From a virus (taxonomy: Duplodnaviria; Heunggongvirae; Uroviricota; Caudoviricetes), in IMG/VR virus record IMGVR_UViG_2851949629_000008, positions 1 through 45,030 of that record: a stretch of 45,030 nt of DNA; one strand, given 5' to 3'. Position 1 is the stretch's first letter. Every line of letters starts with the position of its first letter. The notes beneath the pieces were generated by a model. It worked only from the letters and a program-made list of their open reading frames with translations, was not told where the DNA came from and made no database searches. Positions 1 through 40,500 of this stretch are shown piece by piece. A program made the position numbers and the translations under genes.

Positions 1-267
1 TTACTCTGCAGGTGAAGTCGGCCACTCAATATCAGGTGCGGTTGATGTATCAACACGGTTCAGCAACACCCGATACTTCTTCCAGGCTTCCAGCAACGAG
101 TTTTCTTCCTCCGTTGCGATCTCCAGATCTACAGCATCCTGAAGTGGCGCAATATGCTCACTGAATTCCTGGATGTAGAACTGTGTGGTGACGGTCTTCC
201 AGCCATTCGGCTCCTGCTGTATCGAAGCATACCAGGCTATTTCAATATCGCTATGCTGCGGCAGCAT
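1..267 (-). CDS. tfa: Tail fibre assembly protein (Tfa) C-terminal domain ORF, 88 aa, internal start
   Basis: Translation ends ...[27 protein letters not shown], matching the lambda/E. coli Tfa C-terminus as recalled; lacks the N-terminal half. Confidence 0.6.
16..70. repeat. Direct repeat copy 1 (tfa 3' end, ~55 bp)
   Basis: ggccactcaatatcaggtgcggttgatgtatcaacacggttcagcaacaccc recurs at 1066-1120 with 1 mismatch (g/a at the 24th base of the quoted string). Confidence 0.8.
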
Positions 268-13100: not shown

Positions 13101-13250
13101 CTGACGCTCCATAAAACGCTGCATACGGGCAGAAGACCGTTCTGCATCGCTGGCTGCACCATTCAGAAGGTTTTTGATACGGGGAATTTCATTTTTAAAC
13201 TCTGCCGCATCAATCCCCAAATCAATGACCAGGTTGGCTATCTGGTCCAT
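10176..13250 (-). CDS. H: Tail tape measure protein (H-like, ~1024 aa, longer than lambda H)
   Basis: Coiled-coil-rich; C-terminus ...INNDGTNGQIGPAALKVVYDLGKK...GGLFSGGGR matches lambda H; likely start MDQIANLVIDL (13250), track ORF starts at 13280. Confidence 0.85.
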   Translation of the reverse strand: MDQIANLVIDLGIDAAEFKNEIPRIKNLLNGAASDAERSSARMQRFMERQTQAARQTMQAASSAATAASVHAQTVEKSAQAHERMAREVEKTRQRMEALSQKMREEQAQAMALAEAQDKAAAAFYRQIDSVKQASAGLQELQRIQQQIRQARNSGGIGQQDYLALISEVTAKTRVLTQAEEEATRQKVAFIRQLKEQATRQNLSSSELLRAKAAQLGVSSAAELYIRKMEQAGKATHSLGLKSAAARREIGVLIGELARGNLGALRGSGITLANRAGWIDTLMSPKGMMLGGVIGGIAAALYGLGKAWYDGQKEGEEFNRQLSLTGHYAGVTAGQLWTLSRAISGNGITQHAAAGALAQVVGSGAFRGNDIGMVARAAAQMERSVGQSVSDTISQFKRLKDDPVNAAKALDNELHFLTATQLEQIRVLGEQGRSSDAARIAMSALAEETGRRTADIDNNLNALGSTLQTLSDWWKQFWDAAMNIGREDSLDGQIASLQEKIQRAKKFSWTNSSTQVEYDQQRLNDLQEKKRQKDLQDAKEQAERNYQEQQKRRNAENAALNRMNETEAARHQREIARINAMQYADQAVRDAAIQRENERYEKALASGKKKTRETRNDETTRLLLQYSQQQAQVEGQIAAARQSAGIATDRMTEAHKQLLALQQRISDLDGKKLTADEKSVLARKDELIQALTLLDVKQQELQKQTALNELKKKTIQLTSQLAEEERAQRQQHDLDIATVGMGDQQRQRYQVQLSLRQKYQQQLEQLRRDSEQKGTYNTDDYRKAEQALTESLNRQLNENRRYWQQLEIAQGNWKNGAMRAFQNFTESADNAAGTAEQMFTAAFNSAGNALATFCTTGKLNFKSFTASLLSDLAKIMSQMAMMQAVKGVGSAFGWGRAAAASVTPNADGGVYQSADLSRYSGTVVNRPTFFAFAKGAGVMGEAGPEAILPLRRGADGKLGVVADIGGSGMAMFAPQYNIEINNDGTNGQIGPAALKVVYDLGKKAAADFMQQQSRDGGLFSGGGR

Positions 13251-13551
13251 AACGCACACCTCCGGAAATACCTTCCCCAAGATGCATCAGTTCTTCGTCC
13301 GTTCGCTCCGGTATCCCGTTCTCTTCCGGTAAAAGGCTGAAATCAGCCACCGCAGCATCACTGCTACCGGACACCATTCTCACGATCAATGCCTTCAGCG
13401 AGGCAAACTGCGCATCCATCCACACATCACTGAAGCTCTGCATCCGGAAATAATCGCCCCACTCACCAAGCTCAGTGGCCGACATTTCCGACAGCATCCG
13501 CCGCCAGTCTGCCCGCCGGAACTCCCGGGCAAGCCGCATGACAAACTGCAT
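13222..13551 (-). CDS. T: Tail assembly chaperone T segment (expressed as a G-T fusion by -1 frameshift)
   Basis: Open frame is -1 relative to G and overlaps the G 3' end; conserved G/GT arrangement upstream of the tape measure gene. Confidence 0.7.
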   Translation of the reverse strand: MQFVMRLAREFRRADWRRMLSEMSATELGEWGDYFRMQSFSDVWMDAQFASLKALIVRMVSGSSDAAVADFSLLPEENGIPERTDEELMHLGEGISGGVRYGPDSQPGH

Positions 13552-13559
13552 TTCCCGCG

Positions 13560-13949
13560 TCAGGACTTTTCCGGCGTCAGCACCTCATGCTCCAAATCCC
13601 CGGCATTCTCAATGGCTCCCATACCGCTCAGCGACAGAACCATCTCCGCCCCCGCTCCCAGGGCATCATACGACCATGTTGTAATAACGGATGCGCAAAG
13701 CGTCTCAACATCCTGAGACTGTTCCGCATTCCACAGTGAGCGGGAAACCAGCCAGGCATTGATATCCATCCCCATCCGCAGAAAAGCAATCTGTCGTTCA
13801 GCCTCCGGCAGTTCTCCCTCTTCGGCATCAAACTTTGCCGTTCGCTGCTGAACAAACGCCAGATATTCAATTCTCTGCAGCCCGGACAGCTCACTGAGCA
13901 CCACGGACTGCTTTTCATAATTAAACGTGCCCTGTTTCAGAAACATCAT
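13560..13949 (-). CDS. G: Tail assembly chaperone G
   Basis: MMFLKQGTF...VVLSELSGLQRIEYLAF resembles lambda G (MFLKTESFEHNGVTVTLSELSALQRIEHLA). Confidence 0.8.
   Translation of the reverse strand: MMFLKQGTFNYEKQSVVLSELSGLQRIEYLAFVQQRTAKFDAEEGELPEAERQIAFLRMGMDINAWLVSRSLWNAEQSQDVETLCASVITTWSYDALGAGAEMVLSLSGMGAIENAGDLEHEVLTPEKS
13566..13572 (-). promoter_or_regulatory. Candidate -1 frameshift slippery site for G-T (GGAAAAG)
   Basis: Minus strand ...CCG GAA AAG TCC TGA; the T frame is open through this site; lambda uses G GGA AAG at the equivalent position. Confidence 0.35.
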
Positions 13950-14006
13950 GTTCTCCACCTGCAAAAAAGCCCCGGATAACCGGGGCAAATGATGAGTATC
14001 GTCCTG

Positions 14007-15760: not shown

Positions 15761-16036
15761 TTACTCAATAAAGATCATTGGCTTACCGTTAAAGCGTTCA
15801 TGCCGTGTGACCGTCCATTGTTGTCCGTCATAAACAACGCGATCCCCGCGCCGTGGGCGGTATCCCGAAGAAAACACCACCAGAGAGACCGCAGGTCCGG
15901 ACAGAGCATTCAGCTCTGCCAGTGTTTCTCCCGGGATCACAGTCATATCGACATCATTAATCGAGGCTGTCTTTCCCATCTTTCTGACCGTGATCGCATC
16001 CATACGCGCTGCCAGCCGGGAAAAGGGATCAGACAT
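15761..16036 (-). CDS. Head-tail joining protein (FII-like)
   Basis: 91 aa at the FII position; RRGD motif as in lambda FII. Confidence 0.55.
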   Translation of the reverse strand: MSDPFSRLAARMDAITVRKMGKTASINDVDMTVIPGETLAELNALSGPAVSLVVFSSGYRPRRGDRVVYDGQQWTVTRHERFNGKPMIFIE

Positions 16037-16352
16037 TGAGTTTTACCGGCACTTCTTCTGCACTGGTTCCGGCATCTGCCCAGACAACCCCGACCAGCGG
16101 ATCAGAGCCGCTGTTAGTCAGCTGAACTTTTCCGGACTTCAGATAAACCTTCTTACCCGTTTTCATGTCATCCGTTTTCAGCTTAGGCAGCATAAACACA
16201 CCTTCGGTCATGCCGTCGCCTGTTTCACCCTGTGGAATATCGGTCAGCGCCACCGCAAAAACATCACCCACCTGCACCAGATCTCCGCTGCTGATGGCTG
16301 CACTGGCAACAATCGCCACCGTTTTTCCTTCTTCTACAAAATTCTTTGCCAT
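16029..16352 (-). CDS. Small head-associated protein at the FI/decoration position
   Basis: Start MAKNFVEEGK; Gly/Val-rich ~107 aa protein immediately downstream of the capsid gene; assignment is by position only. Confidence 0.4.
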   Translation of the reverse strand: MAKNFVEEGKTVAIVASAAISSGDLVQVGDVFAVALTDIPQGETGDGMTEGVFMLPKLKTDDMKTGKKVYLKSGKVQLTNSGSDPLVGVVWADAGTSAEEVPVKLNV

Positions 16353-16438
16353 AACTGTCTCCGCACAGCCCCGTTCAGGGGCTGATTTCAGGTACAAAAA
16401 AAGCCCTTACGGGCCATCAGAGTTGTTGTCTGCGACGT

Positions 16439-16756
16439 TTACGCCGTACATTTCACCAGACCGCGGTGATCAACTGGCGCGACACCGGCGTCAATACGCA
16501 CTTTCGTTGTCACGCCATCCACACTGAAGCCCTCCATCTGATCAATATATGGCGTATCCACACCGTTGAGATAAGCCACTTCAATCGTATCGGAGCCTTT
16601 TGACGCAGCCAGGTAGAAGGTGGTCTGGCTGTTATCATCAAGACGAGGCTCTGCAATAACGGTCGCAAAATCTTTCACCGGGTTAATAATACCGGCGTTA
16701 ATGTCAGCCCCCTTGACACTTGAGGAGCGAATGACCTGGTTAGCAACAGACTCCAT
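16439..16756 (-). CDS. Capsid C-terminal segment in -1 frame (probable continuation of the upstream protease/capsid ORF)
   Basis: This frame stays open upstream of its ATG to 16837, overlapping the last 14 codons of the upstream ORF; no convincing RBS of its own. Confidence 0.45.
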   Translation of the reverse strand: MESVANQVIRSSSVKGADINAGIINPVKDFATVIAEPRLDDNSQTTFYLAASKGSDTIEVAYLNGVDTPYIDQMEGFSVDGVTTKVRIDAGVAPVDHRGLVKCTA

Positions 16757-16791
16757 CGCCGTCGGTACCAGTACGAACGCAGGACGAATAT

Positions 16792-18498
16792 TCAGATGAC
16801 GCCCCCCTCTTTCTGAACGCGCATCAACTGGCGGGCTTTATCCAGCGATGCCACGTCCATTGCAGCGCTCTCCAGTACGTTTGCATGTTTCGCTTTATCG
16901 AACAGACTTACATTATCTGTGGAGATTTTCGGGTTAGACGTCAGAATGGCATAAACCAGATCGGCAATAGTGGATTTCGCCGCACGGCCCAGTTTCATCG
17001 GGACATCGGTCAGCATATTCAGATCATCATTGATAATGGCCTGACGGGTGATACTGAACAGCTCGCCATAGGTCGCCAGTGCAATAGTGGCCTGTTTATC
17101 TCCGGTGGTGACGTATTTATATTCCGCCCCTTCACGCACCTGACGCAGAGCACTGAAGCCCCCCATACCCACACGATGGGCAATTTTAAAATCAGACAAC
17201 TGACCTTTCCGGGTCCACTGTTCGTAAGTCTCAGGGGCTTCTTCCCAGCCCTGCAGAATGGCTTTGTTCGCGACATCCAGCAGAATATTACCGAAATCAG
17301 ACGTACTGTGCGTGAACGCTGCCCCGACCATCTGCATCGGGTTATACCCGGAAACCCCAATCCCCCGTTCTGTCAGTGACATTCGGGCATATTCACGCAG
17401 GGTCATCCCGTTATAGACGTTATCCTGTTCACGCTCAGCAAATCCGGCACGCGCCATCAGCGCCTGACGGATCCCGTCCCCCACAAAATTACCGTTTCCA
17501 GCATAAATATGGGCCGGGGTATTTTTATTTGATGGTGAAAATTCCTTACCCATTTCGTTAAGTAATTTCTCACGGGCCTGCTCAAGCGAGCACTCCGGAT
17601 CGGAAAGACAACTGGCCTGCAATGTCTGATAACGCCCGCCAAACATGGCAAACAGATCATTAATACCGTTTACACGCGCTTTTTGCTCTGCCAGTACCTG
17701 CGCACGGATACTGCTTTCATCTGCGGAAGGTGCATTTGTGGTAGTCGCGGTTGTAGCAACTGGAGCCGTAGTCTGATCCTGTGTCTGAGATGCAGTATTT
17801 TTGTTTTCAGGTTCACGCGTTGCACTGTTGCGTGGCGGAATAATCATATTTCGAATGGATTCCGGCATTTTTTTAAATTCCTCTGTACGTTTTGACTGAA
17901 TACATGCCATTGCCTTAACTTCCGGTGTCACCTGGTCAGCAAATCCGTGTGCCAGACATTCGGCACCGGACATCCAGGTTTCATCCGCCAGCATGGCAGC
18001 AATTTCATCGGTGGTTTTCCCGGTTTTCTGCGCATAAGCAGGCAACAGAACCGACTCAACTTTATCAAGCAGGTCGGCATAATCACGCATATCATCCGCA
18101 TCGCCACCACTCACTCCCCATGGTTTATGGATCATCATGAATGCGTTTTCCGGCATGATGACGGGCTCACCCACCATTGCAATGACCGATGCCATGGATG
18201 CCGCGACACCATCCACATAAACAGTAATAGACGCCCCATGATTTTTCAGCGCATTAAAAATGGCGATACCTTCAAAGACATCGCCACCAGGTGAATTGAT
18301 ATGGAGATTAATGTGAGTGATATTACCCAGCGCATTCAGATCGCTAACAAACTGCTTCGCCGTAACTCCCCAGAAACCAATCTCGTCATAGATATAAATA
18401 TCTGCGTCACTTTTATGACCCGCCTTCATCCTGAACCAGGAATTATTCTTCAGACTGGCCTTCGGTTCGCCGCGAAACCACGCGTTCTGTTTCAGCAT
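16792..18498 (-). CDS. Prohead protease (ClpP/S14-like) fused to scaffold/major capsid region
   Basis: HINSPGGDVFEGIAIFNAL is ClpP-like; Ala/Thr-rich linker; capsid-like C-terminal half; strong RBS AAGGAGGTGGTAATG at the MLKQNAW start (18498). Confidence 0.7.
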   Translation of the reverse strand: MLKQNAWFRGEPKASLKNNSWFRMKAGHKSDADIYIYDEIGFWGVTAKQFVSDLNALGNITHINLHINSPGGDVFEGIAIFNALKNHGASITVYVDGVAASMASVIAMVGEPVIMPENAFMMIHKPWGVSGGDADDMRDYADLLDKVESVLLPAYAQKTGKTTDEIAAMLADETWMSGAECLAHGFADQVTPEVKAMACIQSKRTEEFKKMPESIRNMIIPPRNSATREPENKNTASQTQDQTTAPVATTATTTNAPSADESSIRAQVLAEQKARVNGINDLFAMFGGRYQTLQASCLSDPECSLEQAREKLLNEMGKEFSPSNKNTPAHIYAGNGNFVGDGIRQALMARAGFAEREQDNVYNGMTLREYARMSLTERGIGVSGYNPMQMVGAAFTHSTSDFGNILLDVANKAILQGWEEAPETYEQWTRKGQLSDFKIAHRVGMGGFSALRQVREGAEYKYVTTGDKQATIALATYGELFSITRQAIINDDLNMLTDVPMKLGRAAKSTIADLVYAILTSNPKISTDNVSLFDKAKHANVLESAAMDVASLDKARQLMRVQKEGGVI

Positions 18499-19948
18499 TA
18501 CCACCTCCTTTATCGCAGGCCGGATCGGTATCAAACACCAGATCCAGCCTGCGGTTTTCATCAATTTCGGCCTTGCGCCGACGTTTAACATCATCCGGAT
18601 TACGACCACTGGCGCGCACCCAGTCTGATTCTGTTGCCGCACCACCACGAATCTGGATTTTCCAGGCTTCAGCTTCCTTGACAGGATCAATCCACGGCAT
18701 GACCGGACCAGAATATGTTGCGTTATATAATGTTTTTATATCCACATCCGACGGAATTTTCAGCAACCCCGCGGCAACCACCATATTCAGCCATGCCCGG
18801 TACACCGGACGGGTTACAGCACCAATAAAACAGTCCTGCAGGATCAGATAGCCATCGGTGGACTCAACCAGCTCCTGTCGCTGGGAACTGTAGGTACCGT
18901 TATAGTTACGTGCTGCACTGGAAAAACTCAGACGAGTGCCCGCCGCCATGGCCCGCAACTGACCATTACGAAAAGTTTCCAGATTAGGGTTAGGCCGATC
19001 AGATTTGACCATGCCAATATCTTCCCCCTTACGCAGATCGTCATAAATAATGCCAGGAGTGATATGCAGTTCCCGATCATTACCTTTATTCGTCACAGGT
19101 TCCTCATAATCCTGCCCGTCTCCTTTACGAATATACAGCCCCAGTGCCGCAGCAATGCGCGCCGCTACCAGCTCAGCATCTTCATATTCCTTAAGCGCAC
19201 TGATCCGCATCAGCACACCTGACAACATGGATGTGCCACGCGTCTGATGAAGGCGGCGGGTAAACTTCAGATGCACCATATTTTCAGCGGCGATCTCTTT
19301 GGTTTCGCTCTGTCGCCCGGTAACCGGATAATTTTTATAAACCAAATATTTTTTCGGCCTGCCCCATTTATCCAGAAAAACCCCCTGATTCATTCCCGCA
19401 GACTCATCACTGAGCATGGGCACAAAATCCGGCTCCATTGCCTCGAGCCAGAAAGGCACACCGGCAGTCCGCGCCAGCCCGGCACCTGCGCCTCTGACCA
19501 TCTGGGCAAACACTTCTCCATCACGTAACCAGGTACGCAACAGCAGACGTTCGAGCATGGGGCGCGTATGCTGCCCGGTCACATCCGGACTGACAGACCA
19601 TTCCGCCCACAAACGACGGATAATCATTGCCAGCTCTGTAGCCATATCACCATTTTTCAGTAATGGTTGTGGTTCAACAATGATCCCCTTTGCACCAATC
19701 ACCCGCTCCTCAAGTTTGTCGAAAACACCGATTACCAGGTCATGATTGATGTCCAGAAAACGGGCCTGTTCCCGCAGAGAAACCGCCCCGTACTTACTGA
19801 GCTGGTCGGCAGAACGGTTTTCCCGTCGGGCTTTGTGTGTGCGGGTGGGTTTCACGGCCTCATAAGCGCGAATTAACGCCCTTGAGCGCAACCTCGCAGC
19901 TTTCCAGCCGGGAGAAAAAACACCAATCACATCATCAAGAATTGCCAT
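18443..19948 (-). CDS. Portal protein (lambda B family)
   Basis: 501 aa, located between gpW-like and protease genes; lambda-portal-like. Confidence 0.85.
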   Translation of the reverse strand: MAILDDVIGVFSPGWKAARLRSRALIRAYEAVKPTRTHKARRENRSADQLSKYGAVSLREQARFLDINHDLVIGVFDKLEERVIGAKGIIVEPQPLLKNGDMATELAMIIRRLWAEWSVSPDVTGQHTRPMLERLLLRTWLRDGEVFAQMVRGAGAGLARTAGVPFWLEAMEPDFVPMLSDESAGMNQGVFLDKWGRPKKYLVYKNYPVTGRQSETKEIAAENMVHLKFTRRLHQTRGTSMLSGVLMRISALKEYEDAELVAARIAAALGLYIRKGDGQDYEEPVTNKGNDRELHITPGIIYDDLRKGEDIGMVKSDRPNPNLETFRNGQLRAMAAGTRLSFSSAARNYNGTYSSQRQELVESTDGYLILQDCFIGAVTRPVYRAWLNMVVAAGLLKIPSDVDIKTLYNATYSGPVMPWIDPVKEAEAWKIQIRGGAATESDWVRASGRNPDDVKRRRKAEIDENRRLDLVFDTDPACDKGGGNAETERVVSRRTEGQSEE

Positions 19949-26176: not shown

Positions 26177-26251
<75 letters not shown>

Positions 26252-26254
26252 ATA

Positions 26255-26330
<76 letters not shown>

Positions 26331-26332
26331 AC

Positions 26333-26409
26333 TGGACCGCCACCGGGGACTCGAACCTCGCACACTCAACTTAAAGGGTTGACGCTCTTTCCTGATGAGC
26401 CAGTGGCGG
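26333..26409 (-). tRNA. tRNA-like gene, anticodon loop CCUUUAA (UUU, Lys-type; C33 is noncanonical)
   Basis: 77 nt, 7-bp acceptor stem, T-loop TTCGAGT, CCA end; one A-C mismatch in the T-stem. Confidence 0.4.
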
Positions 26410-26410
26410 T

Positions 26411-26486
26411 TGGTGGCCCTTGCTGGATTTGAACCAGCGACCTGGCGATTATGAGTCGCTCGCTCTCACCACTGAGCTAAAGGGCC
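26411..26486 (-). tRNA. tRNA with CAU anticodon (Ile2/ileX-like or Met)
   Basis: GGCCCTTTAGCTCAGTGG...CTCATAA...GGTTCAAATCC resembles E. coli ileX as recalled. Confidence 0.7.
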
Positions 26487-31409: not shown

Positions 31410-31927
31410 TTTTTCGTGGGATGAGCTAAGGCTTTCAGCTTTTTTAGATACATAAGCCGCGTTTCAAGAAATCGAACTTGCCTTTCAAGATCCTCAATGC
31501 GTCGGTCTTTTGACAGCTCCAATGCTGATGCCGCTTTTTCTGGATCAACTGATATTGCAATGTTTCTTTTGGTGCCAATCTTGAGCGCGCGTAAACCAGC
31601 TTCTCCGCGCTCTTCATAGACCTTCAGCCACCTGGCTACAGAACCACTACCAGCAAGCATAAAGTGAGCAGCAGCCTGATTAAGGGACATGTGCTGCTCG
31701 ATCACAGCTTTCACGACCTTAATACGCAACTCTGGATCAGCACTAACGCCTTTAGGTTTGGGAATTAAACCTTTTTCTCCATGTTTTTCATAGAGGGCAA
31801 CCCATGTCCTGACCTGGGTTCGGGGGACACCAAAACGTGCCGAGATGATCCTGTAACCATCATCAGTTGTGAAGTAGTGATTCACGACTTCAAGGCGCTT
31901 TTCAAAAGGGTATTTTGGCTTTGACAT
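31406..31927 (-). CDS. insJ: IS150 OrfA (InsJ, HTH)
   Basis: 173 aa; overlaps orfB. Confidence 0.9.
   Translation of the reverse strand: MSKPKYPFEKRLEVVNHYFTTDDGYRIISARFGVPRTQVRTWVALYEKHGEKGLIPKPKGVSADPELRIKVVKAVIEQHMSLNQAAAHFMLAGSGSVARWLKVYEERGEAGLRALKIGTKRNIAISVDPEKAASALELSKDRRIEDLERQVRFLETRLMYLKKLKALAHPTKK
31422..31428 (-). promoter_or_regulatory. IS150 -1 programmed frameshift heptamer AAAAAAG
   Basis: Minus-strand A AAA AAG at the orfA/orfB overlap, as expected for IS3-family transframe transposase. Confidence 0.6.
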
Positions 31928-32236
31928 ATTAGGGGCTATTCCATTTCATCGTCCAACAAAATGGGTGCAGTACACTTCGATTTATAGTCGGGTGGGGCTT
32001 TTCTCTATCTGCCTTTTGGTGTTCATGCCTGAGACAGATAGCCTCAAGCACCCGCAGCAATTCTACTTATGACGCAATTTAATGACAACAACTCTACAGC
32101 GGTAGTGTGTTTAACTATTGACATTGATTAACTCATTATTCAAAATTTTTGCGTACGCATTAATGATTTTGTGTCGTTGTTGTGATGGTAAAAAAATCAC
32201 AAACGATCTAACAATAACATAGGTGATATTTTCAAT

Positions 32237-40151: not shown

Positions 40152-40500
40152 GGGTCAGGTGGAGTGCGTGCGCCGGACACGGGTGAACATCCGGCACTGA
40201 CAGTTTACTGAAAGGATATGTCCCTGAAAAGTCAGGGCATAACGCGAAAGCGCACGGCGAAATTGGTCTCTCTGTACGGTGTCGTTAAATTTAGTTCGAC
40301 CGTGCGCTTCCGGTTGTGGCAATCCGCGAAATGGCGCGGCGGTAAGTATGGCGGGGTTATTCCTTCCCCGTTGAGGACACCGGGTTGTCAGGTTGACCAT
40401 ACGCTTAAGTGACAACCCCGCTGCAACGCCCTCTGTTATCAATTTTCTGGTGACGTTTGGCGGTATCAGTTTTACTCCGTGACTGCTCTGCCGCCGTTTT
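40152..40500 (+). ncRNA. Candidate structured noncoding RNA region (GC-rich, multiple hairpins)
   Basis: Stems CCCTGA/TCAGGG, CCGCG/CGCGG, GGGTTGTCA/TGACAACCC, GGCGG/CCGCC followed by GTTTTTAAAG; ORFs here are Arg-rich and implausible; strand is uncertain. Confidence 0.3.

Follow-up and report, generated by a model that had tools for sequence, protein, structure and literature searches.

The programmed G/GT frameshift is conserved across lambdoid phages. Gifsy-2-type phages carry a 'tripartite' capsid gene (Effantin et al., 2010, Virology 402:355, as referred to in a citing passage of PMC12315714). The stretch analyzed here, a 45,030-nucleotide window from a tailed-phage record (IMGVR_UViG_2851949629_000008), is a lambdoid prophage with a head module of the mEp460/cdtI/Fels-1 (Gifsy-2-like) type, and the DNA of its fused capsid gene is 98% identical to that of phages mEp460, cdtI, Ayreon and HannyBb. 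Its capsid gene shows the same domain order as the Gifsy-2-type gene (N-terminal ClpP-like prohead protease, scaffold-like linker in the middle, C-terminal major capsid domain) and likewise sits between a lambda-family portal gene and a decoration gene, but in the window copy a 1-nt deletion breaks the frame 120 codons upstream of the gene's end. We consider it probable, at roughly 0.75, that this is a genuine and recent one-base deletion, an ordinary inactivating mutation that splits the capsid gene and involves no programmed frameshift.

Results

The protease/capsid gene of the window is read in two frames. All features of the locus lie on the minus strand. The truncated ClpP-like prohead protease/scaffold/major capsid fusion ORF occupies positions 16792..18498 and encodes 568 aa from an ATG at 18498, a start that follows PGAP's choice for the F9792 orthologue; an upstream extension to a TTG at 18690 is possible and corresponds to the 632-aa version in the mechanical ORF list. 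The ORF ends at a premature TGA (16794-16792), its zero frame at the junction being CAG AAA GAG GGG GGC GTC ATC TGA. In the -1 frame, a TAA at 16840-16838 is followed by an open frame from 16837 to a stop at 16441-16439 (~133 codons), and this segment, 16439..16837, holds the displaced C-terminal ~120 codons of the capsid domain. The -1 reading of the G-run is GGG GGG CGT CAT CTG AAT and continues through an ATG at 16756, which opens a mechanical ORF of 105 aa (16439-16756). The earlier note had placed the protease/capsid stop at 16792 and described a -1 frame that is open across this end into the 105-aa ORF, and both its coordinates and its frames are correct. By a rough estimate, (61/64)^133, an open frame of ~133 codons has a chance of ~0.002, but the conclusion of a frame switch does not need this figure since homology settles the point independently.

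The gene lies among further head and tail genes. A lambda-family portal gene lies immediately upstream (18443..19948, 501 aa; Phage_portal_2, 2.8e-81) and overlaps the start of the protease/capsid gene, as it does in relatives. The next gene downstream encodes a head decoration/cement protein (16029-16397; Phage_cement_2, 1.4e-20; phrog_122 'head decoration') whose orthologue is annotated as a DUF2190 family protein. The overall gene order is terminase (700 aa), small head-tail protein, portal, fusion gene, decoration gene and lambda-like tail genes; this is the order of the fusion family, and the relatives share it. Other prophage genes look intact, including those for terminase (700 aa), portal (501), tape measure (1,034), J (1,131) and integrase (372).

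Profile searches identify the two ORFs as pieces of one fusion gene. The upstream ORF contains the N-terminal ClpP-related head maturation protease domain, with a Pfam CLP_protease match to residues 109-255 of the 632-aa version (1.3e-36) and a score of 222 bits for NF045542 Clp_rel_HeadMat against a cutoff of 120. The Phage_capsid_4 profile (262 positions) is divided between the ORFs, the upstream one matching 7-149 and the 105-aa ORF 171-261. NCBIfam NF045540 is divided likewise: the upstream ORF covers profile positions 2-528 of 652 (793 bits) and the 105-aa ORF positions 549-651 of 652, a stretch of 103 positions at the profile's end. PHROGs agrees with this split (phrog_133). When the two frames are joined by a -1 shift, the resulting 686-aa product follows NF045540 from 2 to 651 in one stretch and scores 994 bits against a cutoff of 475. 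Protease and capsid are thus continuous in one polypeptide in the hypothetical -1-joined product and in the orthologues, but not in the window. Because the two ORFs match consecutive segments of the NF045540 and Phage_capsid_4 profiles and the joined product is collinear, they represent one gene in two pieces, and the locus is a disrupted member (pseudogene) of the NF045540 fusion family.

Comparison with relatives locates the lesion at a single adenine. In the aligned sequences of DS26-1, whose DNA is 99.8% identical to the window, and of mEp460, Fels-1 and VT1-Sakai, the junction reads GAG GGG GAG CGT or an equivalent (GAA GGT GAG or GAA GGC GAT) and KEG(E/D)R is encoded without a change of frame. 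In the window the corresponding letters are GAG GGG G-G CGT, the A of GGGGGAG being absent. The G6 tract (16802..16807, CCCCCC on the plus strand; the missing A falls between 16803 and 16802) evidently arose, as judged from the alignment, by loss of the A that interrupts G5-A-G and not by a change in the number of Gs. The earlier note was right about a G6 at 16802-16807 within the overlap, and its framing of the lesion as a homopolymer event has to be replaced, the lost base being an A. A 1,001-nt query spanning the junction matched 2,039 records of complete E. coli genomes. Among the matches listed, 40 of 40 span 1,002 nt against the 1,001 nt of the query, and each of the 40 is recorded as one 'ClpP-like prohead protease/major capsid protein fusion protein'; the same 1,002-nt span is found in 16 phage records (95-99% identity; mEp460, cdtI, Ayreon, HannyBb, Tritos, phi458 and others). 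Alignment with orthologues, which the earlier note had proposed as a check, accordingly shows an unbroken ORF in mEp460, in Fels-1 and in the listed E. coli genomes with annotation.

The exact junction of the window was also searched for directly. A megablast search of 5,426 complete E. coli genomes with an 81-nt junction query returned 1,826 matching records, none of which is identical to the window's junction (best match 98.8%, one gap). The exact junction 34-mer had no matches in one-genome-per-species contigs, IMG/VR contigs or JGI metagenome contigs. By these comparisons the break is private to the window sequence. The joined product aligns collinearly with the F9792 orthologue, also of 686 aa, and differs from it at 15 positions. 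After residue 284, the sole difference is E566G at the junction, and the amino acids of the displaced 120 codons are the same as in F9792, the nearest orthologue. If the deletion is real, the unchanged amino acids of the displaced codons indicate that it is recent.

Neither a second gene nor functional recoding accounts well for the two-frame arrangement. Two genes, one for a protease/scaffold protein with part of a capsid domain and an independent one downstream for a 105-aa decoration or accessory head protein, would agree with the ATG at 16756 that opens the shorter ORF and with the frequency at which gene callers report exactly this 105-aa product (286 index blocks; 187 contigs). However, the upstream gene is itself broken in 10 of 10 such loci that were read (G5 to G4 at the same run in six, nonsense mutations in two, an upstream A insertion in one and a large deletion in one), the 105 residues coincide with the end of the fusion-protein profile and no good Shine-Dalgarno sequence was found before ATG 16756 (GGTACCGACGGCGATG), which bears out the earlier remark that this ORF lacks a convincing ribosome binding site. 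The decoration protein, as which the downstream ORF might have been recognized, is moreover encoded by the separate next gene, 16029-16397, and the ORF itself corresponds to the C-terminal capsid domain. The orthologue alignment and the broken upstream gene at every locus read lead us to reject the 105-aa ORF as an independent gene, a reading with practically no chance of being correct; the ORF is a by-product of the frame break and no gene. The six G5 to G4 loci (L007, L008 and L011-L014, at ~3955 of each, equivalent to window 16803-16807) belong mostly to assemblies full of homopolymer indels, with L011 (CP030783.2) looking otherwise clean, and errors, possibly real mutations too, recur at the G-run. 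Functional recoding would require that ribosomal -1 slippage on G_GGG_GGC, or RNA polymerase slipping on the G6/C6 tract and adding a G, yields enough E566G capsid protein for viability. The heptamer (16807-16801, zero-frame codons GGG GGC) does lie within the overlap in X_XXZ_ZZN phase, the zero-frame stop follows 2 codons past it, the predicted -1 product (junction ...VQKEGGR...; HLNIRPAFVLVPTAMESVANQVIR) is collinear over 686 aa with one E-to-G change and the prophage itself encodes a tRNA-Gly(UCC). Against this stands the poor shiftiness of the site: in assays of all heptamers in E. coli, GGGGGGC in this phase shifted by -1 at a rate of 0.072 ± 0.006% when no stimulator was present, of 0.122% next to the IS911 stimulators and of 0.262% next to the IS3 pseudoknot (Sharma et al., 2014, PMC4066793, Table S3), at a background -1 level of ~0.055% (Sharma et al., 2014, PMC4066793). 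In a comparison of folding energy with shuffled sequences, no stimulatory fold was found in the 82 nt downstream (-18.4 kcal/mol versus a shuffle mean of -18.85, z = 0.16). Given an efficiency of ~0.07% and no downstream structure, rescue by slippage should be negligible. A capsid needs hundreds of subunits, and a more than 1,000-fold excess of truncated protein would swamp the full-length form. Efficient transcriptional slippage in E. coli is documented for long A/T runs, typically of 8-9 or more, and the run here consists of six Gs. Furthermore, neither the two-frame arrangement nor the slippery site is conserved among the homologues compared. Recoding that sustains the phage is therefore highly improbable, and the full-length capsid by slippage that the earlier note had entertained finds no footing in a private break at a ~0.07% heptamer without a stimulatory structure. 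Just as improbable is a leaky supply of E566G protein by low-level slippage or stuttering that leaves the prophage marginally viable or rescued in trans by a co-resident prophage; if true, this would be, for a capsid gene, a natural case of 'translational correction of a savior indel'.

The remaining alternative to a real deletion is an artefact, in which the true DNA is GGGGGAG, the gene is intact and the A beside G5 was dropped during base-calling or consensus polishing. The lesion is a single-base indel next to a homopolymer, it is private to the window sequence and the lack of decay in the displaced frame relative to F9792 is what an error would also give. The same G-run is miscalled from G5 to G4 in the noisy assemblies L007, L012, L013 and L014. 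However, the missing base is an A outside the G-run, so that the run-length change expected of a homopolymer-length error is not seen. Over a 9,838-column HSP against the F9792 prophage (window 25310-15474; 98.7-99% identity), the capsid deletion is the only indel and no second one occurs in 9.8 kb of the window, in contrast to noisy long-read assemblies of the same module, which contain 10-20 single-base indels, mostly in runs. The identical 568-aa protein is also encoded on a 5.14-Mb NCBI contig and in the Logan assembly of run ERR054686. Aligned with the window, Logan contig L016 of this run shows 0 gaps and 1 mismatch across 11,095 nt, and it contains the G6. The ERR054686 assembly is read-derived and may share reads or a systematic error with the window's assembly, and an error common to both is possible. 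The mismatch, which falls in the tape-measure gene, shows that the window and L016 are not copies of one record. The sequencing error that the earlier note had listed as one of three alternatives is thus unlikely, an assembly with the same deletion and one other differing base weighing against it. The reading of one gene broken by a 1-nt indel is supported, and slippage as a designed mechanism is not. A genuine deletion is consequently the reading we adopt.

The ERR054686 contig carries a further difference from the window. The mismatch (window 13121 versus L016 9315, C versus T) is the sole difference over 11 kb and changes Gln54 (CAG) of the tape-measure ORF to TAG in L016, splitting the gene into 43 aa and 978 aa. 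A sister isolate may have acquired a second inactivating mutation here, or the base may be an artefact that a paralogous prophage introduced into the assembly graph. The left end of L016 is chimeric, with terminase-region sequence 76% identical, which hints that the ERR054686 genome holds another such prophage.

A genuine deletion would probably deprive the prophage of its own heads. Loss of the A from ...GAG GGG G[A]G CGT... would make translation run GGG GGC GTC ATC TGA and terminate, giving a 568-aa product that would be without approximately its last 120 residues and ~40% of the capsid Pfam domain. Profile positions ~529-651 of 652 of NF045540 are lost from the zero-frame product. When the intact orthologue was compared by sequence with solved structures, only ClpP chains and no capsid structure were matched, and the value of ~40% hence rests on Pfam and NCBIfam profile coordinates. 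Judged by this domain coverage, the truncated protein should not assemble into a shell. In that case the prophage would be incapable of making its own heads unless a related prophage supplied capsid protein in trans. G_GGG_GGC would be an accidental consequence of the deletion, and full-length E566G protein would arise in ~1 in 1,000 translations.

Additional features of the window are located outside the head module. Four phage tRNA genes (26177-26486, minus strand) lie downstream of the Q antiterminator region and are of the Met/Ile2 type (CAU; tRNA-Ile in F9792), Lys(UUU), Thr(UGU) and Gly(UCC). Rfam matches at gathering level were obtained for DicF (40445-40496, plus strand), sok antitoxin RNA (31898-32053, minus strand), which adjoins a hokD-like region, and IS009 (41-244, minus strand). 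These matches fit a Qin/Rac-like early region (dicB and ydfA-D homologues in the F9792 relative).

Discussion

The capsid locus of the window represents an ordinary frameshifted prophage gene of an already known family and touches no open biological question. Its consequences concern annotation: the two ORFs belong under a single pseudogene entry, a frameshifted ClpP-protease/major-capsid fusion gene, and, despite its complete look, the prophage is to be scored as probably defective in head assembly. The locus also carries a caution, namely that where a frame breaks at a heptamer that is in phase and looks slippery, programmed recoding is not indicated unless the arrangement is conserved.

Related prophages show comparable damage. 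In the VT1-Sakai prophage the orthologue of the protease/capsid gene is likewise inactivated, with IS629 dividing it into two annotated CDS, whereas the lesion in the window is a single-base deletion and the remaining prophage looks intact. In the VT1-Sakai record (AP000400.1, L004 689-3957; Stx1 prophage of O157:H7 Sakai) these CDS bear the names 'scaffolding protein' and 'hypothetical protein'. DS26-1, the closest complete-genome relative, has an intact capsid gene and a large terminase pseudogene with an internal stop (L001 1-244). As judged from their sequences, copies of this prophage appear to be inactivated at different head and packaging genes.

The lambda-like G/GT system offers an instructive comparison, as the window contains a candidate for it. 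The tail assembly chaperone pair gpG/gpT (13222-13988, minus strand) has a candidate slippery site at ~13566-13572. gpG ends ...CCG GAA AAG TCC TGA, and the -1 frame from A_AAG enters the gpT ORF (13551-13222). This gene pair is present in every relative examined and is a candidate for a lambda-type programmed -1 frameshift, unlike the capsid break, which is private. Both share overlapping frames with a -1 slippery site shortly before the zero-frame stop. G/GT, however, combines an efficient A_AAG with two needed products, while the capsid break offers one of the poorest heptamers and a zero-frame product without a known role.
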